A stretch of DNA of 60,272 bases, from the NCBI GenBank assembly GCA_000991205.1, contig LBRC01000004.1:1-60272 (forward strand). The letters are read 5' to 3'. Origin of the DNA: Parcubacteria group bacterium GW2011_GWA2_36_10. GTDB lineage: Bacteria; Patescibacteriota; Patescibacteriia; UBA1558; GWA2-36-10. The notes beneath the pieces are model-generated. The model saw only the letters and a program-made list of their open reading frames with translations, made no database searches and was not told where the DNA came from. Within the stretch, counting starts at the first letter, position 1. Every line of letters begins with the position of its first letter. The position numbers and the translations under genes are program-made. Shown here one piece after another: positions 4,895 to 54,726 of this stretch.

Positions 4895-5680
4895 ATGAAG
4901 CATGATAATAAAAATAAAATCAATTTTGATCAAGTCGAAGAATTAGATTGGCAAGCTAATGAAAATTATCCTTGGGAATACGAAGTCAAGGATGAAGTTT
5001 GGTTAGCTGATTTGTCTAAAATTGCTAAACCTCAAAAAATAAAAAAAACTTTAGTAAAGCCAGAGATCAAAGTTTCAGTCAGTGAGCAAATTATTTCTGA
5101 TCCGCAAAATATAGATGAAAAAGCAGCCGAAGAAAAAATCACGGTCGTCGATACAGAACTAAAATTTACGCCTGATCAAGAAAGTGAAATATTTGAGCCA
5201 GCTGAAACTGTAGTTTCGGCTATTAGCGATCAATGGTTTGAAGAGCAGAAACAGACCGCCCAGAGGGCGACCGCCTCGCGGGCGGAAAAAGTTAGTTTTG
5301 ATTGGTCAGATAATTTTTCTTGGGTTTTTGCGAGCTTAGTTTTATTTGTTTTTGTCTTAGCTGGTGAAATTGCCTTGCATTTTGTTAGTCAACATTGGTA
5401 TTGGTCAGCGACTTACTTATTATTATCTCTATGGCTTTGGCGCATAGCAGTTTTAGTTGGCTGGTTTTATTTAGGCGCTAGACGTTGGTTTTTGGCGACT
5501 GAACAAATTATGATTACCGCTGTCCTGGGTCAATTAGTCGCAGTTTTTGCTTCTGGCATTTATCGTATTTTTGTCATTCACAGTTTATGGACTTGGCTAA
5601 GTCTAGTAGTGGAGCCGATTTGGATGTTACTTATTATCGCTGTCGCTGGCAGTTTATTTGTCAAAATAATTAATAAATAA
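4895..5680 (+). CDS. Hypothetical membrane protein (acidic N-terminal half, 4-5 TM C-terminal half)
   Basis: 261-aa ORF with no recognisable family. Two in-frame GC mini-hairpins at 5257-5285 encode TAQRATASRAE. Confidence 0.6.
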   Translation: MKHDNKNKINFDQVEELDWQANENYPWEYEVKDEVWLADLSKIAKPQKIKKTLVKPEIKVSVSEQIISDPQNIDEKAAEEKITVVDTELKFTPDQESEIFEPAETVVSAISDQWFEEQKQTAQRATASRAEKVSFDWSDNFSWVFASLVLFVFVLAGEIALHFVSQHWYWSATYLLLSLWLWRIAVLVGWFYLGARRWFLATEQIMITAVLGQLVAVFASGIYRIFVIHSLWTWLSLVVEPIWMLLIIAVAGSLFVKIINK

Positions 5681-5698
5681 ATTTTAGAAGTAATATTT

Positions 5699-5717
5699 CT
5701 TCCGCCTACGGCGGAAG
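5699..5717. repeat. GC hairpin CTTCCGCC-TAC-GGCGGAAG (possible terminator)
   Basis: 8-bp perfect stem 19 nt after the stop at 5680. There is no clear T-run. Confidence 0.45.
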
Positions 5718-5743
5718 AATAATGCAAGGTTAAAAGAAATTAT

Positions 5744-6058
5744 ATGAGTTTAGAAAAAAATCAGCGTGATATTGATAGCAATCGTTTTGTAGCGGCACTG
5801 TCATATATTTGGATTTTATGTTTGGTGCCTTTATTTTTAAAGCGCCGTTCACATTTTGCTCAATTTCATGCCAAACAAGGTTTGCTATTATTTGTGATTG
5901 AAATCATTGGTTGGATTATTTTTTGGATCCCAATTATTGGCTGGGCTTTATTTATCATGGTGATTCTTTATTCAGTTCTGGGAGCACAGAAAGCTATGGC
6001 TGGTGAATATTGGGTGATGCCGATTTTAGGCAAATATGTGAGTAAACTAGATTTATAA
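5744..6058 (+). CDS. Small membrane protein, DUF4870-like
   Basis: 104 aa with three hydrophobic segments and a HAKQGL motif, as seen in DUF4870/Tic20-like small membrane proteins. Confidence 0.55.
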   Translation: MSLEKNQRDIDSNRFVAALSYIWILCLVPLFLKRRSHFAQFHAKQGLLLFVIEIIGWIIFWIPIIGWALFIMVILYSVLGAQKAMAGEYWVMPILGKYVSKLDL

Positions 6059-6087: not shown

Positions 6088-8496
6088 ATGCAAGCCAAGA
6101 AAAATAAGTTTATTTTGTGGTTCAAAGACACTACTATCAAAGATATCCCTAGAGTAGGTGGTAAGAATGCTTCGTTAGGAGAAATGTATAGTAAGTTAAC
6201 CAGTAAGGGAGTGGATGTGCCGAATGGTTTTTCGGTGACAGCGGCTGCTTATAATTATTTTTTAAAAACCGCCGGTATCAAAGATGATATCGAGAGAATT
6301 TTAGTAGATTTAGATACTAATAGTATTAAAAATTTATCGGAACGTGGGGCAAAAGTAAGAGCCACTATTTTGAATGCTAAATTTCCTGAAGATTTAAAGA
6401 AAGCAATTTTAGAAGCCTATCATCAACTTTCTAAACAATATAAAACTAATTTTACAGATGTGGCTATTCGCTCTTCAGCCACCGCTGAAGATTTGCCCGA
6501 TGCTTCTTTTGCTGGACAACAAGAGTCGTATTTACATATCAAAGGTGACGCCCAAGTTTTAGAAGCTTGTAAAAAATGTGTAGCGTCTTTATTTACTGAT
6601 CGGGCTATTTCTTATCGAGTGGATAAAAAATTTAGTCATTTTGATATTCAGCTTTCGATCACTGTCCAAAAAATGGTCAGATCAGATAAGGCCTGCTCTG
6701 GTGTGATGTTTTCTATCGATACTGAGTCAGGTTTTCGCCAAGCAGTTTTGATCAATGCTGCTTATGGCTTGGGCGACTATATTGTGCAAGGCGTAGTGAC
6801 GCCAGACGAGTATTATGTTTTTAAAACAAATTTAAAACCAGGTTTAGTCCCGATTATTAGTAAAAATCTTGGCGCTAAACTAAAAAAATTAGTTTATAAT
6901 ACAGAAAGTTCTGGTCCAAATATCAAAGGCATGGCGACTACTCCAGAAGAGCGTGGTCAATACGTTCTGACTGATCAAGAAATTTTAAAATTAGCCAGAT
7001 GGGCGGTACAGATCGAAGCGCACTATAAAAAACCCATGGACATGGAGTGGGCTAAAGATGGCGTTACAGGCAAATTATTTATCGTCCAAGCTAGACCAGA
7101 AACTGTCCGTAGTCGTGATAATGCTAATATTTTGGAAGAGTATATTTTGCAAGGCAAAGGTAAATTATTATCCACCGGTGCTTCAGTTGGAGCAAAAATC
7201 GGTAAAGGTAAAGTACATGTGATTGAAAATGTGGCTAATATCGGACAGTTTTTACAGGGTGAAGTATTAGTGACCGAGATGACTGACCCAGACTGGGAGC
7301 CGATCATGAAAAAAGCTTCAGCTATTGTCACCAACTCTGGTGGTCGTACTTGTCATGCAGCTATTATTTCTCGTGAGCTCGGCATCCCTTGTGTCGTCGG
7401 CACCAAAGATGGCACTAAGACTATTAAGAACGGTATCAGCGCAACTGTCAGTTGCGCTGAAGGCGAAAAAGGACATGTCTATGAAGGCCTGTTAGTTTTT
7501 AAAATCAAAAAAACTGACTTGAAGAAAATACCAAAGCCAAAAACCAAGATCATGATGAATATTGGTAATCCGGAAATGGCTATGGCGCAAAGTTTTATCC
7601 CAAATGAAGGTGTGGGCTTGGCGCGTGAAGAATTTGTGATTTCAAATTATATTCGCATTCATCCTTTAGCACTATTAAATTTTAATAAACTAAAAGATGA
7701 AAAATTAAAAAAACAAATTGCCAGTCTTACTACTACACACGAGAATAAAGCACAATTTTTTGTGGATAAATTAGCCGAAGGTATAGCGCGCATTGCCGCT
7801 GCTTTTTACCCTAAAGATGTGATCGTCAGATTGTCAGATTTTAAATCAAATGAATATGCCGGTTTAATCGGTGGCAAAGGCTTTGAGCCCATTGAATCAA
7901 ACCCGATGATTGGCTGGCGTGGAGCAAGCCGCTACTATGATCCAAACTACATTGCTGCTTTTAAACTAGAGTGCAGAGCTTTAGTCAAAGTGCGCAAAGT
8001 CATGGGTTTGACTAATGTCAAAGTGATGATTCCTTTTTGTCGCACCGTAGAGGAAGCTAAAAAAGTTTTGGCCATCATGAGAGATTTTGGCTTAGAACGA
8101 GGTAAAGATAATTTAGAAGTTTATGTAATGTGTGAGATTCCTTCTAATGTTATTTTAGCTGACGATTTTTCTAAAATTTTTGATGGCTTTTCTATCGGCT
8201 CCAATGACTTGACCCAGCTTACTTTAGGAGTAGATAGAGATAGTGAATTAGTTTCACATGTTTATGATGAAAAAAATATGGCGGTTAAAACTTTGATTGC
8301 AGAAGTGATTAAGAAGGCCAAAAAGAATAAACGGAAGATCGGCATTTGTGGTCAAGCACCATCTGACTTTCCAGATTTTGCCCAGTTTTTAGTTGAGCAG
8401 GGTATAGATTCCATTTCTTTAAATCCGGATACCGTCATTAAGACTATGATCGCTATCAATGAAACAGAAAAGAAATTAAAACGTAAAAAGAAATAG
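6088..8496 (+). CDS. ppsA: Phosphoenolpyruvate synthase (pyruvate, water dikinase)
   Basis: 802 aa. N-terminal PPDK_N-like ATP-grasp, swivelling phospho-His motif GGRTCHAAIISRELGIPCVVG, and a C-terminal PEP-utilising TIM barrel (GSNDLTQLTLG). Confidence 0.9.
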   Translation: MQAKKNKFILWFKDTTIKDIPRVGGKNASLGEMYSKLTSKGVDVPNGFSVTAAAYNYFLKTAGIKDDIERILVDLDTNSIKNLSERGAKVRATILNAKFPEDLKKAILEAYHQLSKQYKTNFTDVAIRSSATAEDLPDASFAGQQESYLHIKGDAQVLEACKKCVASLFTDRAISYRVDKKFSHFDIQLSITVQKMVRSDKACSGVMFSIDTESGFRQAVLINAAYGLGDYIVQGVVTPDEYYVFKTNLKPGLVPIISKNLGAKLKKLVYNTESSGPNIKGMATTPEERGQYVLTDQEILKLARWAVQIEAHYKKPMDMEWAKDGVTGKLFIVQARPETVRSRDNANILEEYILQGKGKLLSTGASVGAKIGKGKVHVIENVANIGQFLQGEVLVTEMTDPDWEPIMKKASAIVTNSGGRTCHAAIISRELGIPCVVGTKDGTKTIKNGISATVSCAEGEKGHVYEGLLVFKIKKTDLKKIPKPKTKIMMNIGNPEMAMAQSFIPNEGVGLAREEFVISNYIRIHPLALLNFNKLKDEKLKKQIASLTTTHENKAQFFVDKLAEGIARIAAAFYPKDVIVRLSDFKSNEYAGLIGGKGFEPIESNPMIGWRGASRYYDPNYIAAFKLECRALVKVRKVMGLTNVKVMIPFCRTVEEAKKVLAIMRDFGLERGKDNLEVYVMCEIPSNVILADDFSKIFDGFSIGSNDLTQLTLGVDRDSELVSHVYDEKNMAVKTLIAEVIKKAKKNKRKIGICGQAPSDFPDFAQFLVEQGIDSISLNPDTVIKTMIAINETEKKLKRKKK

Positions 8497-8602
8497 ACAT
8501 TGACTAAACTCTTTTTTAGTGATTTAATAATATTTGTCACTCTATTGCTAGCAACTTTCCTAAGGTAGGAAAGTGCCTTATACACAATCAGAGAGGTTCC
8601 TT

Positions 8603-8917
8603 ATGTCGGCAACTATTCGTGCATCTCTGCGCCATCATTTTCAACGGCGCCTGCATCCGAGTATTCAGCAAAACGGTGAGATCTTCACGGTGAAGATCGA
8701 GGTGGATCGTCTGCGTCTTCCCAAGCAGAGCGTGGCCGAAGCGCAACACAAACACAAGTGTTGCATCTTCGATAGCACTCACCTGACCATGGAAGGCACA
8801 CACGAGGATCTTTCTGCGTGCATCGTTTTTCTCGCTGAAAACGAAGAGAATCCCTTGAGGCAAGCCGGTGCTCGTGATGGACGTGGCAGGGTGCCGAAGT
8901 CCGCTGTGCTTCGTTAA
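8603..8917 (+). CDS. Orphan 104-aa protein in a GC3-rich cassette (A1)
   Basis: ATG at 8603 lies 6 nt after GAGAGG (the ORF track starts it at 8573). Codon usage is unlike the flanks (ctg, cgc, gtg, gcc). A hairpin terminator follows at 8938-8969. No family was recognised. Confidence 0.55.
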   Translation: MSATIRASLRHHFQRRLHPSIQQNGEIFTVKIEVDRLRLPKQSVAEAQHKHKCCIFDSTHLTMEGTHEDLSACIVFLAENEENPLRQAGARDGRGRVPKSAVLR

Positions 8918-8937
8918 GCACAACAAGTACATTCTCG

Positions 8938-8969
8938 CCCCCAGTCGCAATCGCGGCCGGGGGCTTTTC
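8938..8969 (+). terminator. Rho-independent terminator after A1
   Basis: GCCCCC...GGGGGC stem followed by TTTT. Confidence 0.6.
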
Positions 8970-9057
8970 ATTTTGTTGACTGAAAATCTTTTTTCTGCCA
9001 AAATGAATATTTGCTGAACCTTTTCATTGTGTGTGCAAAAACAAAAGGGAGCCTGAC

Positions 9058-9423
9058 ATGTCTTCACCCGATGCCTGCGAAAGCTTGCGGCAAGCTATCG
9101 TCAAAAAACTTGGCCACAGGGGGGCAAAGATTTTCTTTGGCGTTAGTTTGACCACCGTAGGCAAGCAAGATGCTTTTAGCTTGCGTATACCTAGACAATC
9201 TTTGCGCTTAGTAGAAAGTGATATAGCCAAAATACCCAAGGAAGCCGGCATGGTCATTGGCCATGGTAGCCGTGATAATTTACGTATCGCCGGTACTATC
9301 AGTGGCATCTTGGCGGCCGTGGATTTTTTACTGGAGCATGGTCATTTGCTCTTGCTACCAGCTACAGAGCCGAAGCCACGTGTTCAGAAAAAGCACGATC
9401 CTAAGCAGTTGAAAGCTCTCTAG
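9058..9423 (+). CDS. Orphan 121-aa protein in a GC-enriched cassette (A2)
   Basis: ATG at 9058 lies 6 nt after AAGGGAG (the ORF track starts it at 9031). A terminator follows at 9433-9464. Composition is intermediate between A1 and the backbone. No family was recognised. Confidence 0.55.
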   Translation: MSSPDACESLRQAIVKKLGHRGAKIFFGVSLTTVGKQDAFSLRIPRQSLRLVESDIAKIPKEAGMVIGHGSRDNLRIAGTISGILAAVDFLLEHGHLLLLPATEPKPRVQKKHDPKQLKAL

Positions 9424-9432
9424 CACATCACG

Positions 9433-9464
9433 CCCCTGGCTGCATCCGCGGTCAGGGGTTTTTT
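9433..9464 (+). terminator. Rho-independent terminator after A2
   Basis: CCCCTGGC...GGTCAGGGG stem followed by TTTTTT. Confidence 0.65.
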
Positions 9465-9470
9465 ACTGGA

Positions 9471-9499
9471 TTGACTTTTTAGCGATAAAAAATTATAAT
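9471..9499 (+). promoter_or_regulatory. Sigma70-type promoter of tRNA-Ser
   Basis: TTGACT, 17-nt spacer, TATAAT, ending 12 nt before the tRNA 5' end. Confidence 0.75.
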
Positions 9500-9511
9500 T
9501 CAGCTCGTTAT

Positions 9512-9601
9512 GGAGAGGTCGCATAGTGGTCTAGTGCGCTTGCTTGGAAAGCAAGTAGGGTGTCAAAGCCCTCGCAGGTTCGACTCCTGTCCTCTCCGCC
9601 A
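9512..9601 (+). tRNA. tRNA-Ser (anticodon GGA), CCA encoded
   Basis: Acceptor GGAGAGG/CCTCTCC, anticodon arm CTTGC-TTGGAAA-GCAAG, long variable arm, T-loop GGTTCGA. Confidence 0.9.
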
Positions 9602-9708
9602 GCTCTTGACTTTTTCTTTTTTTTATTTTAGTGTATAATACATTCGTTAAAAATTAATTAACTAATACAAGCGATCTTTTATGAAGTAGCTTAAGTAGAT
9701 AAAAAGAA

Positions 9709-10101
9709 ATGGAACAAACTAACACTTGTAATTTCGGTGAACATTTGACTATCGATGGTTATCAAGGTAGCGAAGAAAAATTAAATAACCAAGCTTTAGT
9801 TCTAAATTGTTTGAACGAATTACCCAGCTTACTTGGTATGCACCATTTAGCTGCGCCGGAGGTTTATTTTGCCAAAGGCAATGATTTAAAAGACCCTGGG
9901 GGTTGGAGTGGCTTCGTGGTGATCGAAGAAAGCCACATTAGTATTCACACTTTTCCAGCCAAGCATTTTGTGAGCATCGATGCTTACACTTGTCGTAATG
10001 GCATGGATTGTGATTTCATTGTTAACTACTTTAAAAAAGTCTTTGACTTAAAAGAAGTGGAAACTAATTTTATTAAACGCGGTACGCATTTTCCGCTATA
10101 A
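9709..10101 (+). CDS. speD: S-adenosylmethionine decarboxylase proenzyme (small pyruvoyl type)
   Basis: 130 aa. VIEESHISIHTFP contains the E-S self-cleavage site typical of the small bacterial/archaeal AdoMetDC family. Confidence 0.8.
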   Translation: MEQTNTCNFGEHLTIDGYQGSEEKLNNQALVLNCLNELPSLLGMHHLAAPEVYFAKGNDLKDPGGWSGFVVIEESHISIHTFPAKHFVSIDAYTCRNGMDCDFIVNYFKKVFDLKEVETNFIKRGTHFPL

Positions 10102-10251: not shown

Positions 10252-11169
10252 ATGGACATAATATATTCTTTAAAGAAAAATATTTGGGCAGTGATTTTAT
10301 TGAGCATTGCCTTATCTTTTTGGTGGCCAAGTTTTGGCTTATTTTTACAGCCAAGCGCCATCTATCTTTTGATGCTTTTAATGCTGTTTTCCGTGCTAGA
10401 TATGAGCTACAGAAAAGTATTCAAAGAGCTAAAGCATGATTTTAGCAAAATAATTTTGAGTTTACTTATCGTTCATTTAGCCGGACCATTGATTATTTTA
10501 TTTTTTAAACCCTGGCTAGAGCCTAGTTTATTTTTAGGCTTGATTTTAGCGACTGCTATCAATGCGGGTATTAGTATTGTTTTTCTAGCTAAACTATACG
10601 GTGGTTCATCTAGCCAAAGCTTAGTGATAGCCGCTTTATCACAAATCTTAAGCCCGATCATCGTGCCGACAGTAGTCTTTATTTTTGCTAGTACTACTTT
10701 GCACATCGATCCCATGAGCATGGCTTTGACGATTGCTAAATTAGTTTTATTACCGATTGCTTTATCGATGTTAGTGCGACGCAGTAGTTTTTATCACGGC
10801 TTAGTCAAAATATCTTCCAGTGTTAATATTATTTTATTATTTTTATTAATCACCGCTATTATCGCGCCATTAAGACTATTGATTTTAAGTAACTTACAGC
10901 AAGCTGGCTGGCTAGCTTTATTAGTTGCTTTAGTATTAGTAGTAGATTTTTCTTTAGGATTTTTCTTGGGTAAAAACAGAAGCGAGCAAGTGACTTTTGG
11001 TATTTCAGCTAGCTATAAAAACTTTGTGCTAGCTAATGTCTTAGCTATGACTTTATTTGGGCCTTTAGTCGCACTTCCAGCTGCTATCTATGCAGTTTTA
11101 AGTAATTTGTTTTTAATTCCTTTACAATTTTTGTGTTGCCCTACCAGCCGCGAAGCGGGCAAAAAATAA
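10252..11169 (+). CDS. Polytopic membrane transporter, bile acid:Na+ symporter (BASS)/Acr3-like
   Basis: 305 aa with about 9-10 TM segments, resembling the BASS family by eye only. The C-terminal PTSREAGKK is encoded by a GC hairpin at 11147-11160. Confidence 0.45.
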   Translation: MDIIYSLKKNIWAVILLSIALSFWWPSFGLFLQPSAIYLLMLLMLFSVLDMSYRKVFKELKHDFSKIILSLLIVHLAGPLIILFFKPWLEPSLFLGLILATAINAGISIVFLAKLYGGSSSQSLVIAALSQILSPIIVPTVVFIFASTTLHIDPMSMALTIAKLVLLPIALSMLVRRSSFYHGLVKISSSVNIILLFLLITAIIAPLRLLILSNLQQAGWLALLVALVLVVDFSLGFFLGKNRSEQVTFGISASYKNFVLANVLAMTLFGPLVALPAAIYAVLSNLFLIPLQFLCCPTSREAGKK

Positions 11170-11170
11170 T

Positions 11171-11908
11171 ATGACCAATAAAGAATTAGATTTTTTAGTA
11201 AAATTAAAGCAAAAAAAGTATCGTCAAAGCGAAAACTTTTTTGTGGTAGAAAATCCAAAAGTTATTTTAGAGGAAAAAAATAATCCAAATTTAAGACAAG
11301 TTTATGTGACGGATAATTTTTTAAGCTCACAGGACAATAGCTTGCCCTTTAAATATCAAGTAATTTCTGAAAAAGAATTAAAGCAAGTGACAAATTCCGT
11401 CACGCCTCAAGGTATGCTAGCAGTTTTTAAGCTTCCGCAAGTCAAAGAGTTTGATTTTAAAGCTAAGGCTATTTTTATTTTAGATAATCTGCAAGATCCA
11501 GGAAATTTAGGCACGATTATCCGTACCGCTGATTGGTTTGGCTTTAAAGATTTATTTTTAGGAAAAAACTGTGTAGAAATATTTAATCCTAAAGTCGTTT
11601 CAGCTTCAATGGGATCTTTGTTTCATTTAAATTTTTATGCTAACTTAGACTTAGTAGATTTATTAAAAGATTTAAAGAAAAATAAATATCATGTTTTAGC
11701 GACTGACTTGCAAGGCAAAGAAAAATTTATTTTAGATACCGCTAAAAAAATGGCGGTCATTGTCGGTAATGAAGCTCAAGGAGTCAGTGAGGAGCTGAAA
11801 AATGAAGCCGATCAATTAATCAAATTACGTAGCTTTGGTCAAGCAGAATCTCTCAATGTCGCAGTGGCTACGGCTATTTTAATGCACGAATTTCACCCCG
11901 TTAGATAA
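11171..11908 (+). CDS. SpoU/TrmH-family RNA 2'-O-methyltransferase
   Basis: SPOUT motifs LDNLQDPGNLGTIIRTADWFG, VIVGNEAQGVS and SLNVAVATAILMHE. The last codons (HPVR-stop) lie in palindromic element 11894-11948. Confidence 0.85.
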   Translation: MTNKELDFLVKLKQKKYRQSENFFVVENPKVILEEKNNPNLRQVYVTDNFLSSQDNSLPFKYQVISEKELKQVTNSVTPQGMLAVFKLPQVKEFDFKAKAIFILDNLQDPGNLGTIIRTADWFGFKDLFLGKNCVEIFNPKVVSASMGSLFHLNFYANLDLVDLLKDLKKNKYHVLATDLQGKEKFILDTAKKMAVIVGNEAQGVSEELKNEADQLIKLRSFGQAESLNVAVATAILMHEFHPVR

Positions 11909-31370: not shown

Positions 31371-31712
31371 TTGGTAATCGCAACAGAGTTGGACACGATT
31401 TGGGACTTGATTGGGGAATTGGATGCCAAACTTCGTGCGTTCTGTGACGTACATGGCTGGCATTTCCCCGAGCATCAAAAGGAGACTCACATGACCGCAG
31501 CAGCAGCCGTACAACATCGGACACAGGGATGGCTTGTTGGCTACAAGGGTCGGGGGGTTCGTCTGATGACTGGACCCAACGCACATAACTTGTGCCATGT
31601 TTTTTCTCCTGGCTCTGGTGCTGAGCCGACTTTTGCCGGCTATGCCATGCTTCACGAATTGCATTCCGTGTATGATGAGCTGGATATGCCCATCGAGGCC
31701 ATCAGCGTCTAG
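31371..31712 (+). CDS. Orphan 113-aa protein in a GC3-rich cassette (C)
   Basis: TTG start lies 7 nt after GAGGAG. A terminator follows at 31735-31770. Perfect 10-bp inverted repeats at 31350-31359 and 31722-31731 flank the ORF. No family was recognised. Confidence 0.55.
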   Translation: MVIATELDTIWDLIGELDAKLRAFCDVHGWHFPEHQKETHMTAAAAVQHRTQGWLVGYKGRGVRLMTGPNAHNLCHVFSPGSGAEPTFAGYAMLHELHSVYDELDMPIEAISV

Positions 31713-52098: not shown

Positions 52099-52231
52099 TA
52101 CTTAGTATTTTTTGATCTTTGACTTTGACAATGAAAAGATAGATAGATTTTCACCCTCAACTTTTAAAGCACACTTTGGAGGAAGTGTGATGTGTTCGAA
52201 ACAACTACCGGTCAACATGGAGGATCTTCCT

Positions 52232-52780
52232 ATGAAAGTCTTCCGACCATGGCTTCTCATCTCGGTGGCTTTGCTGTCGCTGACGATGAGTTGCCAGTCC
52301 ATCGCCTTGGCCAGTCCCATCTCTGGAAACAACGGACAGGCCAGCGATGACGCCACCCTGACGGCGGACATGCTCACCAGCACGCAGAATGTGCTGGCGG
52401 AAGAGCAGGACAACGGCCAACCGCAGACATTGCCTACCATGGAGGTGTCGCAAGTCTCCAAGGAACTGATGCTGACTGTGAATGGTTTTGCGGATTTCCT
52501 GGACTTCAGCGGCGACCTGACGATCCTGCCGATCAGCGCCAACCAGCCCTTTGATTTGCTGGGCATGACGGAGTGGATCGACAACTCGGTGACCCGGCCG
52601 GCCAGCTCCAACGATGAGATGATCACGGAGCAGGCGGCCACGATTCTCCCGGGCAACATCTTCACCTCAACGACGGCTGCCATCGGCGACAACGCGGTCT
52701 TTCGACCATCCAGCGGCAATCTGGCCTGTAGCATGACGCAGCTGGCCTCCAACGGCGCCAGGACCGACCACAACAGCTGA
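52232..52780 (+). CDS. Secreted orphan protein in a GC3-rich cassette (D1)
   Basis: ATG at 52232 lies 7 nt after GGAGGA and gives a canonical signal peptide MKVFRPWLLISVALLSLTMSCQSIALA. Alternative starts at 52190 (also behind GGAGGA) and 52112. A terminator follows at 52870-52899. No family was recognised. Confidence 0.6.
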   Translation: MKVFRPWLLISVALLSLTMSCQSIALASPISGNNGQASDDATLTADMLTSTQNVLAEEQDNGQPQTLPTMEVSQVSKELMLTVNGFADFLDFSGDLTILPISANQPFDLLGMTEWIDNSVTRPASSNDEMITEQAATILPGNIFTSTTAAIGDNAVFRPSSGNLACSMTQLASNGARTDHNS

Positions 52781-52869
52781 TCTGGGGCCAACATCCTTGA
52801 TACGGCTCTCAAGGTTGTATGGCTCCTAAAAAAACTATCCGTTCTTCATTGCTCATTCCGCTAACTCCG

Positions 52870-52899
52870 CGCGCGACCCATCTGGTGTCGCGCGTTTTT
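52870..52899 (+). terminator. Rho-independent terminator after D1
   Basis: CGCGCGAC...GTCGCGCG followed by TTTTT. It closely resembles the terminator at 54489-54520. Confidence 0.75.
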
Positions 52900-52992
52900 C
52901 TTTGTCTAATTAATTTTTATTAACTTGTCCCGGGTTTATCCCGGGACTTCTTTACTTTTTTACAATTTAATATATACTAAAGCTAGATGCCA

Positions 52993-53021
52993 TTGACAAA
53001 AATTCAACAATGTGATATGTT
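52993..53021 (+). promoter_or_regulatory. Sigma70-type promoter of cassette D2, with an overlapping palindrome
   Basis: TTGACA, 17-nt spacer, TATGTT. TGTGA-TATGT-TCACA (53011-53025) overlaps the -10 box. Confidence 0.65.
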
Positions 53022-53100
53022 CACATGAATTTTGTCTTGTGCAAAGCCCTTTGAAATCACAGAGTTCGTTCGAAAGAACAATCAACAAGGAGAGACTTCC

Positions 53101-54459
53101 ATGAAGAAGCGCATCACTTGGATTTTGGCCACGTTCGTGGCCATGCTCATCTGCCTGCGGCCGGCATCGGCCACTGTCATCAACGTCAACGCCGGCGGCA
53201 ACATCCAATCTGCCATCGACCAGACGGTCGAGGGAGACACGGTCGCAGTGCATGCAGGTACTTGGTCTGATATCAACATCTATCCGCCTCAACACGCCAT
53301 TGTTCTGTTGGCGGATCCCAATGTCTACATCAACAGCGGCACTGCTGTGTATCTGGCCGGTTCAGACACCACCAGTATCATGGATGGCTTCCATTTCACT
53401 GGCTTTTACGGCACGGCTGTGACTTTTCACAACGGTTCCGGCGCCACACTGCGCAATCTGGACATCAGTAGCAAGCCCATCAGCGGCATTTTCATCGGCC
53501 ATGACAGCTACGTCAAGCTGGAGAATATCCGCATTCATGATTGCCCGGGCGTCGCTATCTGGCCTTATTCTTCAGCTAGTTCGAGCTGGGGTTATGCCAA
53601 GGCCACAGCTTCGTATTTCGAGAACAATGGTGTAGCTGCACCGGCTCTGCTGCCAAGCATCGAAAATGGGCAACTCGTCTACTTGCCATACGAAGCTGAT
53701 CGTAGCGCCAATTTCGGCGCGGTGTGCTATATGAGTCTCGGCTCTGGCCAGATGGACTGGATCGACTGCTACATCATCACCAACAGCACCAACTATTTGG
53801 CAGGAGCGCTCTACGCTGGCAATACCGCCAACACCGATACCTGTTTCGCCAACATGAAGCAGTGCACGGTGATCGGCAACGCAACCGGCAATGAAGGCTC
53901 GGTCTTCTGGGGAGTCGGCAAGCATCGTCTGATGGTGGAAAACTGTTTGTTCATGAACAACAATGAGCAACAGCAGACCTTTGTCGGCAATACCCACTTC
54001 ACAGGAACCAATTTGGCCTGGCCAGGAAATCACGGCATCGTCGGTGCCCTGGTGGCTGATCCGCTTTTCTGCGATTTGGGTGCTGGTTACTATGTCGTCT
54101 CCAACTCACCTTGCTGGCCAGCCAATAACCCGTCCGGCAACCAGATCGGTGCTGTCGAGGGCGTGTGTACCTCCGTGGACACACGTAATTTGCCCGAAGC
54201 TTTCCAGCTGACGGCCTATCCGAATCCCTTCAACCCCTCGACCACGATCGGCTTCAACCTGACGAGGTCCGGCCTTGTCACACTGAACATCTACGACCTG
54301 GAAGGTCGTCTGGTGAAGACCCTTCTCAACGATGAGCAGCGACCAGCCGGCCTGAACAGCGTCAACTTCGACGCCAATGGCATGCCCACCGGCACCTACT
54401 TCTGTCGGCTGGAGACCAACGGCCAAACCACGACCAGCAAACTCTTGTTGGTCAAGTAG
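53101..54459 (+). CDS. Secreted right-handed beta-helix repeat protein with a T9SS-type C-terminal sorting domain (D2)
   Basis: ATG at 53101 lies 6 nt after AAGGAGAG. Signal peptide MKKRITWILATFVAMLICLRPASA. Repeats of about 22-25 aa rich in G, N and T (e.g. GATLRNLDIS, VKLENIRIHDC, MVENCLFMNN). The C-terminal tail is YPNPFNPSTTIGFNL..LVTLNIYDLEGRLVKTL...GTYFCRLETNG...KLLLVK. Confidence 0.7.
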   Translation: MKKRITWILATFVAMLICLRPASATVINVNAGGNIQSAIDQTVEGDTVAVHAGTWSDINIYPPQHAIVLLADPNVYINSGTAVYLAGSDTTSIMDGFHFTGFYGTAVTFHNGSGATLRNLDISSKPISGIFIGHDSYVKLENIRIHDCPGVAIWPYSSASSSWGYAKATASYFENNGVAAPALLPSIENGQLVYLPYEADRSANFGAVCYMSLGSGQMDWIDCYIITNSTNYLAGALYAGNTANTDTCFANMKQCTVIGNATGNEGSVFWGVGKHRLMVENCLFMNNNEQQQTFVGNTHFTGTNLAWPGNHGIVGALVADPLFCDLGAGYYVVSNSPCWPANNPSGNQIGAVEGVCTSVDTRNLPEAFQLTAYPNPFNPSTTIGFNLTRSGLVTLNIYDLEGRLVKTLLNDEQRPAGLNSVNFDANGMPTGTYFCRLETNGQTTTSKLLLVK

Positions 54460-54488
54460 AACTCTGTGAGGAGAGATTGCTCTCCATC

Positions 54489-54520
54489 GCGCGCGACCAC
54501 CCCTGTGGTCGCGCGCTTTT
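54489..54520 (+). terminator. Rho-independent terminator after D2
   Basis: 12-bp stem GCGCGCGACCAC / GTGGTCGCGCGC with a 4-nt loop, followed by TTTT. Confidence 0.8.
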
Positions 54521-54726
54521 CTTTTTGTAAAAGATGAGAAATAAGGGCTTTTGTCAATATTGCTAAAAGTATTGATATTAGTTATAATTTTAGTGGTTTT
54601 TACGCTTCAATAATGAAATAAGATTGAGCGGAACCCCGGCGAATGCCGGGGTAAACCTCAAGGAAAAAATCATTGAGCGTAATCCCGCTTTGCGGGATTA
54701 TAATAATAATTCTGGATTAATTTTTT

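Follow-up and report, generated by a model that had tools for sequence, protein, structure and literature searches.

Two small GC-rich genes of a Parcubacteria genome are probably divergent paralogues in a long-standing variable slot 3' of ppsA

The 60,272-nucleotide (nt) stretch of DNA analysed in this study, hereafter called the window, is contig LBRC01000004.1 (contig C4 of genome G000 in our numbering) of Parcubacteria group bacterium GW2011_GWA2_36_10, a metagenome-assembled genome (MAG) whose 48 contigs add up to 0.80 Mb, with a completeness of 88% and a GC content of 36.2%. It carries two small genes, A1 and A2, in the interval between ppsA and a tRNA-Ser gene. The left neighbour of this slot, ppsA (6088..8496), encodes an 802-residue phosphoenolpyruvate (PEP) synthase (pyruvate, water dikinase) with the Pfam domains PPDK_N, PEP-utilizers and PEP-utilizers_C. 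Its right border is tRNA-Ser(GGA) (9512..9601; detected by ARAGORN and, at 56.5 bits, by the Rfam tRNA model), beyond which lie speD and then the gene for an SBF transporter. A1 (8603..8917) encodes a basic protein of 104 residues (isoelectric point, pI, 9.3) and A2 (9058..9423) a basic protein of 121 residues (pI 10.1). Both genes, ppsA, the tRNA gene and the signals of the slot are on the plus strand. A preliminary description of this DNA had presented A1 and A2 as orphan, GC-enriched genes in a segment of acquired DNA at a tRNA locus. The genes and their coordinates are borne out; their history is probably different. Our analysis argues that A1 and A2 are real, fast-evolving paralogues in a long-standing variable slot 3' of ppsA, a reading that concerns their structure and evolution and not their function.

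Each gene has its own signals, and those named in the preliminary description were recovered. Upstream of A1 is a promoter-like site, TTGACT-17-TTTAAT (8500..8528; -35 box 8500-8505, TTTAAT 8523-8528), which is conserved in relatives: its -35 box and the GATTTAATAATATTTGT block are kept in G001 (a genome of the same genus), G022 (of another genus), G003 (of the genus of G022) and L062 (a contig of a related strain). A consensus scanner did not list this site, the TTTAAT being devoid of an A at position 2. The 7-bp-stem hairpin noted earlier in the A1 leader (CTTTCCT/AGGAAAG, 8555-8573) is real and constitutes the inner part of a longer stem-loop of the 5' untranslated region (UTR; 8551..8576) with an 11-bp stem and a loop of 3-5 nt (-12 kcal/mol, z -3.2 in a single-sequence fold). 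The ribosome-binding site (RBS) of A1, AGAGAGG (8590..8596), is located 6 nt 5' of the ATG within the invariant leader block UAUACACAAUCAGAGAGG. Downstream of A1, an intrinsic terminator (8937..8976; -27.4 kcal/mol, z -4.25) consists of a GC-rich hairpin (8937-8964) followed by the CUUUUCAUUUUG T-run, and equivalent terminator hairpins are found 3' of A1 in G001, G022 and L062. The promoter scan placed the A2 promoter-like site, TTGACT-17-CAAAAT with an extended TG, at 8976..9004; it is kept in L062, and its -35 box and adjoining stretch are similar to those of the A1 promoter (repeat family D11, 8506-8517 versus 8983-8994). The A2 RBS, AAGGGAG (9045..9051), was identified in the sequence and is preceded by the leader motif CATTGTGTGTGCAAAA (9025-9040), which is common to the second slot gene of G022. 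The leader motifs of both genes are unique to the locus, with no further occurrence in the genome. The A2 terminator (9432..9465; -23.5 kcal/mol, z -4.7) has a 12-bp stem (hairpin 9432-9459) and TTTTTT, and this T-run ends about 6 nt 5' of the -35 box of the tRNA-Ser promoter, TTGACT-17-TATAAT (9471..9499; 11/12 consensus match in the promoter scan), as had been described. Each gene would therefore be transcribed from its own predicted promoter and ended by its own terminator. In the window the intrinsic terminator of ppsA is missing, as seen from a 54-nt alignment gap relative to G001, G022, G003 and L062. As no ppsA terminator is present and a mere 3 nt separate the stop codon of ppsA from the -35 box of A1 (8494-8500), ppsA transcripts probably read through into A1 in this genome. 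A further observation concerns A2: a 23-nt stretch of its coding sequence (9313-9335; GCGGCCGTGGATTTTTTACTGGA), which encodes a portion of the conserved C-terminal helix, shares 83% identity with 9448-9470, that is, to the 3' arm and T-run of the A2 terminator (repeat family D2). This likeness may be due to chance, or may be a vestige of how the A2 unit arose.

The junctions of the slot are not assembly artefacts, since the same order and sequence are found in independent assemblies. The exact A1 protein is encoded on 21 contigs. In at least 10 contigs, which were assembled independently and come from different samples and assemblers (ENA, JGI, Logan), the order is ppsA, A1, A2, speD, SBF transporter and the sequence matches the window across 8482-9800, save one single-nucleotide polymorphism at 9237. 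Contigs L056, L057 and L060, otherwise 100% identical to the window, contain tracts of about 300 nt with about 13% divergence at 8208-8481, 10300-10600 and 10800-11200. The tract within ppsA (8208-8481) shows about 87-90% identity with each of the ppsA alleles compared, including that of the window, so that none of these alleles is its donor. It bears a 1-nt deletion at 8318 which cuts PpsA to 767 residues in L057 and which is also present in L060, and it ends (8481) between the last ppsA codons and the A1 promoter. Such tracts mean either that related lineages frequently contribute DNA by gene conversion or that the contigs are strain chimeras.

A1 and A2 truly encode proteins. When the window is compared to G001, the A1 sequences differ at 26, 27 and 58 sites of codon positions 1, 2 and 3, respectively, the third-position differences being about twice as numerous as those at either of the other positions, and 35 codon changes are synonymous. 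All eight A1-type sequences have an intact reading frame, even where identity falls to 25%. The ratio of non-synonymous to synonymous divergence (dN/dS, Nei-Gojobori) is 0.15-0.23 for A1, and 0.17 for A2 when compared to its L062 orthologue (88% identical). A1 nevertheless evolves fast, with a dN of 0.19-0.36 versus 0.03-0.05 for ppsA.

The GC enrichment described earlier is confirmed. GC in 200-nt windows is 0.42-0.55 over 8500-9600 versus 0.31-0.37 in the flanks, and the A1 and A2 units have about 50-55% GC in a genome of about 36% (mean 0.362). GC at third codon positions (GC3) is 0.56 in A1 and 0.48 in A2, compared to 0.32 in ppsA and to a median of 0.30 for the open reading frames (ORFs) of the genome. 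The slot genes of the relatives behave likewise, with a GC of 0.40-0.57 in surroundings of 0.25-0.35; three A1 orthologues have a GC3 of 0.52-0.68, and the more distant orthologue of G047 has 0.42. Given the high GC3, amino-acid composition is only part of the answer. Selection on mRNA structure was rejected as a general cause of the GC content, as synonymous-codon shuffles were significant only for the A1 of the window (z -2.8) and not for its orthologues, A2 or speD. The composition of the slot is unusual, yet other spots in the genome share it: GC-rich pockets are frequent (120 windows reach 47% GC or more), and GC3 is 0.48 or higher in about 60 of 905 ORFs.

These high-GC3 ORFs comprise small orphans as well as genes of several hundred codons; examples are found at 5174-5767 and 10982-11872 of contig C11, 8139-9431 of C13, 14117-18014 of C22, 6986-8992 of C24 and 12-21 kb of C5. 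In contig C5, GC3 is raised throughout (median 0.41), and this contig may be mis-binned. Two other GC3-rich orphan units of the window, at 28.6 kb and 31.4 kb, are unrelated in sequence to A1 and A2. The ORF at 8186-8527 of C46 equals that at 31371-31712 of the window in length (113 residues) and in GC (0.528), and on these two counts may be a second copy of the 31.4 kb unit. The largest GC-rich block of the window, 52102-54650 (GC 0.52, GC3 about 0.7), holds an orphan 236-residue ORF on the minus strand (52102-52812) and a gene (53032-54459) for a 475-residue protein that has both a right-handed beta-helix and a Por_Secre_tail domain. Por_Secre_tail is a C-terminal sorting domain of type IX secretion, typical of Bacteroidota. 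Unlike A1 and A2, this block looks like genuine foreign DNA, or like a binning or assembly chimera.

Both genes are orphans, as had been stated: searches of Pfam, NCBIfam, PHROGs, PADLOC and PDB sequences with the single proteins and with an 11-member set gave nothing above noise, and neither gene has an Rfam match. The protein searches and structure prediction suggested in the preliminary description thus led to no known family and, as regards structure, to no confident fold match; they brought out a BLASTP alignment between A1 and A2 with E = 0.089. An exhaustive profile search of 1.84 billion (1.84e9) representative proteins returned nine proteins, all of the A1/A2 family and all of about 100 residues. 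Word-index searches of 5.8e9 proteins (two with single sequences, one with a profile) retrieved close relatives only. A pattern scan found no relative on metagenome contigs and only the G001 and G022 loci on genome contigs. No second copy of the family was detected in 86 genomes of the order or in the genome of the window itself, using protein, DNA and hidden Markov model (HMM) searches against all ORFs.

The slot proteins align in three parts: an N-terminal helix with xLRxxLxxxF; two beta-hairpins with a helix between them and an invariant Gly after strand 4; and a C-terminal helix. An HMM built from all members except A2 gives A2 a score of 22.2 bits, when the best of 2000 A2 shuffles reaches 7.4, and an HMM of the non-A1 members gives A1 13.2 bits versus a shuffle maximum of 10.5. 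AlphaFold2 predicts for A1 the elements H2-12, E20-24, E27-33, H41-50, E54-56, E60-65 and H67-80, with a core of residues 2-80 (pLDDT 76, pTM 0.59), and for A2 the same order of elements (pLDDT 73.5, pTM 0.62). The predicted tails are disordered in both, Arg-rich in A1 and Lys-rich in A2. In addition, the 3' arms of the two terminators are alike and so are the two promoters, which fits an old duplication of the whole unit. Taken together, the profile scores, the models and the flanking signals give moderately strong grounds for regarding A1 and A2 as tandem paralogues, old and very divergent, of one tiny lineage-restricted family. As a less GC-rich paralogue, A2 does not need the partial amelioration by which its intermediate composition had been explained.

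Several known families and systems were considered and discarded. Foldseek searches with both models against PDB and with the A1 model against BFVD gave no match with E below 0.01 (best 0.04 in PDB and 0.012 in BFVD, with template modelling (TM) scores of at most 0.47), and the look-alikes among these matches, namely ACT-domain, type III secretion chaperone, double-stranded RNA-binding domain and LAGLIDADG folds, are all weak. The predicted core shares with LAGLIDADG proteins the order alpha-beta-beta-alpha-beta-beta-alpha and the domain size (about 80-100 residues), and enzymes of the I-OnuI and I-AniI type are among the weak matches of the A2 model (E at least 0.24, probability at most 0.18, TM score at most 0.29). 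However, the motif and the catalytic Asp/Glu at the end of helix 1 are lacking in the alignments of the A1/A2 family (11 and 8 sequences); with no motif, no invariant acidic residue and no Pfam match at E ≤ 1, the likeness is one of topology only and the proteins were not classed as LAGLIDADG endonucleases. A type II toxin-antitoxin pair was also rejected: a terminator and a second promoter separate the two genes, A1 occurs alone in G001 and G047, and there is no Pfam, PADLOC or NCBIfam match.

We then compared the slot among relatives. A1 orthologues with about 60% amino-acid identity are present in G001, G022 and L062, and distant orthologues (25-34% identity) in G047, P0010 and P0011; P0009 is a further A1 orthologue. 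Statements on genomic context concern the family members other than P0009, P0010 and P0011. An A1-type gene is located directly 3' of ppsA in G001, L062, G022 and G047, hence, with the window, in five genomes of three genera. In G001, G022 and L062, the A1 orthologue lies after ppsA and before tRNA-Ser or A2, with conservation of the nucleotide sequence of its promoter and leader. G047 has no tRNA-Ser nearby, and yet its A1-type gene follows ppsA; the gene is thus linked to ppsA and the slot and not to the tRNA. Every close relative has A1. A2 is kept in L062, and G022 has a counterpart of it by position; G001 lacks A2, its A1 terminator directly adjoining the tRNA promoter. Both genes are present in 10 of 10 conspecific assemblies. 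The preliminary description had proposed such a comparison of the interval: the interval is variable, but the same genes with similar composition recur at it in the case of A1 and largely so in that of A2, and this speaks against acquisition.

The survey was extended to 30 genomes of the bacterial family, of which the 1.5 kb 3' of ppsA were scanned. Small GC-enriched slot genes were also found in G006, G014, G017, G018 (two genes), G003 (53 residues) and G008, and the slot proteins of G006, G014, G017 and G018 are further members of the protein family, which is tied to this single slot after ppsA in at least 6 genera. In the PpsA tree, one clade (support 100/99) is made up of genomes with a small slot gene (7 of 7: G014, G047, G006, G022, G003, G001 and the window); G017 and G018 are outside this clade. 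Synonymous divergence (dS) is 1.1-1.8 for A1 versus 0.95-1.15 for ppsA, and in the comparisons between G001, G022 and L062 it is 0.77-1.23 for A1 versus 0.90-1.10 for ppsA. As the dS of A1 is as deep as that of ppsA while GC3 is still high, a recent, un-ameliorated import is unable to give the A1 pattern. For the same reason, high GC3 at saturated synonymous sites, the GC-rich codons of A1 and A2 are kept up and are not the un-ameliorated trace of a recent import.

Two relatives deserve a separate description. G003 (L015), whose PpsA is 95% identical to that of the window, has only a 53-residue GC-rich ORF in its slot (201-362 of the extracted stretch; MSKKADKLKK...IVVAGS...), with the conserved promoter and a different leader; the family HMM does not recognise this protein, which is possibly a truncated remnant of the family. 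In G022 (L004 712-926, minus strand), there come after the tRNA-Ser promoter a copy of the tRNA 5' half (about 34 nt), an 88-nt spacer and a complete tRNA-Ser(GGA); further downstream, a large serine-recombinase-like ORF (L004 1-750) runs with its C-terminal part (zinc-ribbon and coiled-coil region) into the tRNA 3' end. This arrangement suggests an integration or excision scar at tRNA-Ser.

The occupants of the slot have not all shared one history. When L062 is compared to the window, ppsA has a proportion of synonymous differences (pS) of 0.57 (dS 1.06), A1 of 0.71 (saturated) and A2 of 0.28 (dS 0.35), the A1 leader and the A1-A2 spacer being well conserved. Since pS differs among the three genes, parts of the slot have differing histories, and this mosaic divergence points to allele exchange among relatives. 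The distribution of the occupants is also discordant with the PpsA tree, A1-type genes being found in G047, G022, G001 and the window and G006-type genes in G006 and G014; moreover, G003 and G022, which belong to one genus, differ in their slot gene. Homologous recombination with divergent relatives appears to be active, judging by the divergent tracts of the conspecific contigs, and slot turnover probably has two sources, old paralogues being lost differentially and related lineages exchanging alleles. According to the proposed mechanism, the slot would be inherited vertically in one clade of an ultra-small-genome, Parcubacteria-like family, usually 5' of tRNA-Ser(GGA), its content would change by duplication, loss and homologous allele exchange among related lineages, and it would not have been made by integrase-mediated insertion at the tRNA. 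In this scheme we infer the mechanism of exchange and the selection on composition.

How do other explanations compare with this one? A recent horizontal acquisition, in which a GC-richer foreign island landed beside tRNA-Ser as had been supposed, is improbable. It would account for the deviant GC and GC3 of both genes, their orphan status, the different genes found in the ppsA-tRNA-Ser interval of different genera and the lack of A2 in G001, a genome of the same genus; the serine-recombinase fragment and partial tRNA-Ser duplication of G022 indicate that the tRNA can serve as a recombination site, and genomic islands in Patescibacteria MAGs have generally been interpreted as horizontal gene transfer (HGT) (PMC12455944). 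However, A1 occupies one site in five genomes of three genera, where it is similarly GC-enriched, with saturated synonymous sites and a high GC3; the slot maps to a well-supported PpsA clade; the G047 gene follows ppsA without a tRNA nearby; and the promoter and leader are shared with the host lineage. The preliminary description had itself pointed out that an integrase and a position on the 3' side of the tRNA are absent, and both statements hold: the segment is 5' of the tRNA promoter, A1 and A2 are the only genes between ppsA and the tRNA, and no integrase or recombinase is encoded there or by the adjoining speD and SBF transporter genes. No att-like, tRNA-derived or long direct repeat was found in 8300-9800, only short promoter and terminator similarities, and no outside donor among 1.84e9 proteins. 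Promoter-gene-terminator modules might instead form a travelling pool, moving between related Parcubacteria or from an unseen GC-richer phage or plasmid reservoir, with a conserved slot whose occupants are repeatedly replaced; this would account for a composition that never ameliorates, but we hold it to be unlikely. The discordant pS values within the slot, the spread of A1-type and G006-type genes against the PpsA tree and the difference between G003 and G022 are in line with such a pool, as are the TTGACT that starts each unit right after the previous T-run, which gives short shared borders, and the frequency of short divergent recombination tracts in the population. Yet no copy was found in a viral or plasmid-like context, the family numbers just 9 representatives of about 100 residues each, and no genome searched has a second copy. 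Furthermore, the dS of A1 matches that of ppsA among G001, G022 and L062, as under vertical descent, and differential loss of ancient paralogues explains the distribution equally well.

The position of the genes might also reflect a role as lineage-specific partners or regulators of PEP synthase in place of PpsR (DUF299), for which the chances are slim. In its favour, the family members found are all directly 3' of ppsA, including in the tRNA-less G047; co-transcription by read-through is possible in the window, where no terminator separates ppsA from A1; and a search for a PpsR/DUF299 (PF03618) gene came up empty, though in a genome with a completeness of 88%, so that its absence is unproven. 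Against it, the units have their own promoters and a terminator parts them from ppsA in relatives; PpsA is 79-95% identical across the family when the small proteins have diverged past BLAST recognition, unlike co-evolving partners; ppsA lacks any such gene in most genomes of the family; and common descent in one small clade accounts for the adjacency. That A1 or A2 is itself a PpsR/DUF299 protein was rejected, as neither has a Pfam match, be it to the kinase-PPPase domain (PF03618) or to another. GC-rich islands in AT-rich genomes are often structured non-coding RNAs, and the ORFs could then be mere by-products of the GC content. Indeed, GC-rich DNA yields long ORFs on either strand, such as the antisense 159-residue ORF at 8588-9067, and the A1 transcript folds better than shuffles (z -3.3). 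This explanation is hardly tenable, given the codon-periodic and frequently synonymous substitutions and the frame retained in eight A1-type sequences. Moreover, the antisense ORF is not conserved (64 residues in G001), Rfam searches at the gathering threshold and even at E ≤ 10 detected the tRNA only, and synonymous-codon shuffles reveal no conserved surplus of structure in the coding sequences of the orthologues. For the coding regions, the evidence already refutes a structured RNA. Covariation, which a dual RNA function would require within the coding sequence, is seen in the 5' UTR hairpin only.

The reading of A1 and A2 as fast-evolving paralogues in a long-standing slot must itself be set against several results that weigh on the other side. 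The signal of paralogy is weak in direct comparison: the BLASTP alignment between A1 and A2 is not significant, and an HMM built from A1-type sequences alone gives A2 just 6.7 bits, a score equalled by 3 of 2000 shuffles. The two AlphaFold2 runs used one common alignment, and their agreement in fold is not independent. The mosaic of synonymous divergence comes from one short contig (L062) with about 70-130 synonymous sites per gene, and metagenome contigs can be strain chimeras. The synonymous-shuffle folding gave no consistent selection on mRNA structure to account for the GC content, the A1 of the window being the sole outlier. As to function, two members of the family are acidic, G017 (pI 5.6) and G022_2 (pI 6.1), and no fold match in PDB or BFVD backs nucleic-acid binding.

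Nucleic-acid binding is a tentative proposal, more doubtful than the evolutionary reading: A1 and A2 could be small nucleic-acid-binding proteins, in which case the ligand would probably be RNA. The proposal is based on the basic pI (9-10.7 in 14 of 16 slot proteins), the Arg/Lys-rich tails predicted to be disordered, the conserved Arg in helix 1 and the covarying leader hairpin. The residues invariant in A1-type proteins are R6, R15, R16, R38, H51, C54, E64, G65, C73, R91 and R94. RNAalifold on four orthologous A1 leaders gave a hairpin of 11 pairs, of which 4 show compensatory double changes, flanked by invariant single-stranded blocks, one of them including the RBS. If A1 binds RNA, this 5' UTR hairpin would be an mRNA-stability or autoregulatory element. 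Quite unlikely, as a whole, is the bolder proposal that the A1 and A2 units are a pool exchanged by homologous recombination at the T-run/TTGACT borders, with a GC content held by selection or by an unseen GC-richer replicon, and that the proteins are autoregulatory RNA-binding factors which recognise their own leader hairpin. If true, ultra-small bacteria would possess, in these slots, a kind of small regulatory gene cassette, mobile or exchangeable, that has not been described before.

The locus resembles two known kinds of element in part. Phage morons, as defined in HK97 and HK022, carry a promoter and a terminator of their own and a GC content unlike that of the surrounding genes, and are inserted between conserved genes (PMC3594210). 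The A1 and A2 units share the promoter, the terminator and the deviant GC. However, they have no phage or prophage context, their neighbours being ppsA, tRNA-Ser, speD and the SBF transporter gene, and no PHROG or significant BFVD match; and whereas morons are spread among phage genomes, A1 and A2 are found at a fixed chromosomal site over deep divergence. With tRNA-associated islands the slot has in common a variable, compositionally deviant stretch by a tRNA with genes for hypothetical proteins. It differs from them in being shorter than 1 kb, 5' of the tRNA promoter and without an integrase or, in the genome of the window, a duplicated tRNA end, and in that its gene content is conserved across genera and linked to ppsA instead of the tRNA. 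The A1/A2 locus would probably be counted as a Patescibacteria island, yet it is probably not a recent import.

Taken alone, the result is modest: it corrects the reading of the segment as an island at a tRNA and describes a new protein family that is very small and whose predicted fold could not be matched with confidence. The locus also provides a handle on the question of whether such genes are resident or exchanged, since its two paralogues have diverged discordantly between strains and its leader hairpin covaries. The composition-based detectors of HGT and islands used in Patescibacteria surveys would score slots of this kind as foreign, and the case of A1 and A2 shows that this inference can err. 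A1 and A2 are stand-alone, fast-evolving small genes whose GC-rich codons outlast synonymous saturation in an AT-rich genome of the candidate phyla radiation (CPR)/Parcubacteria.

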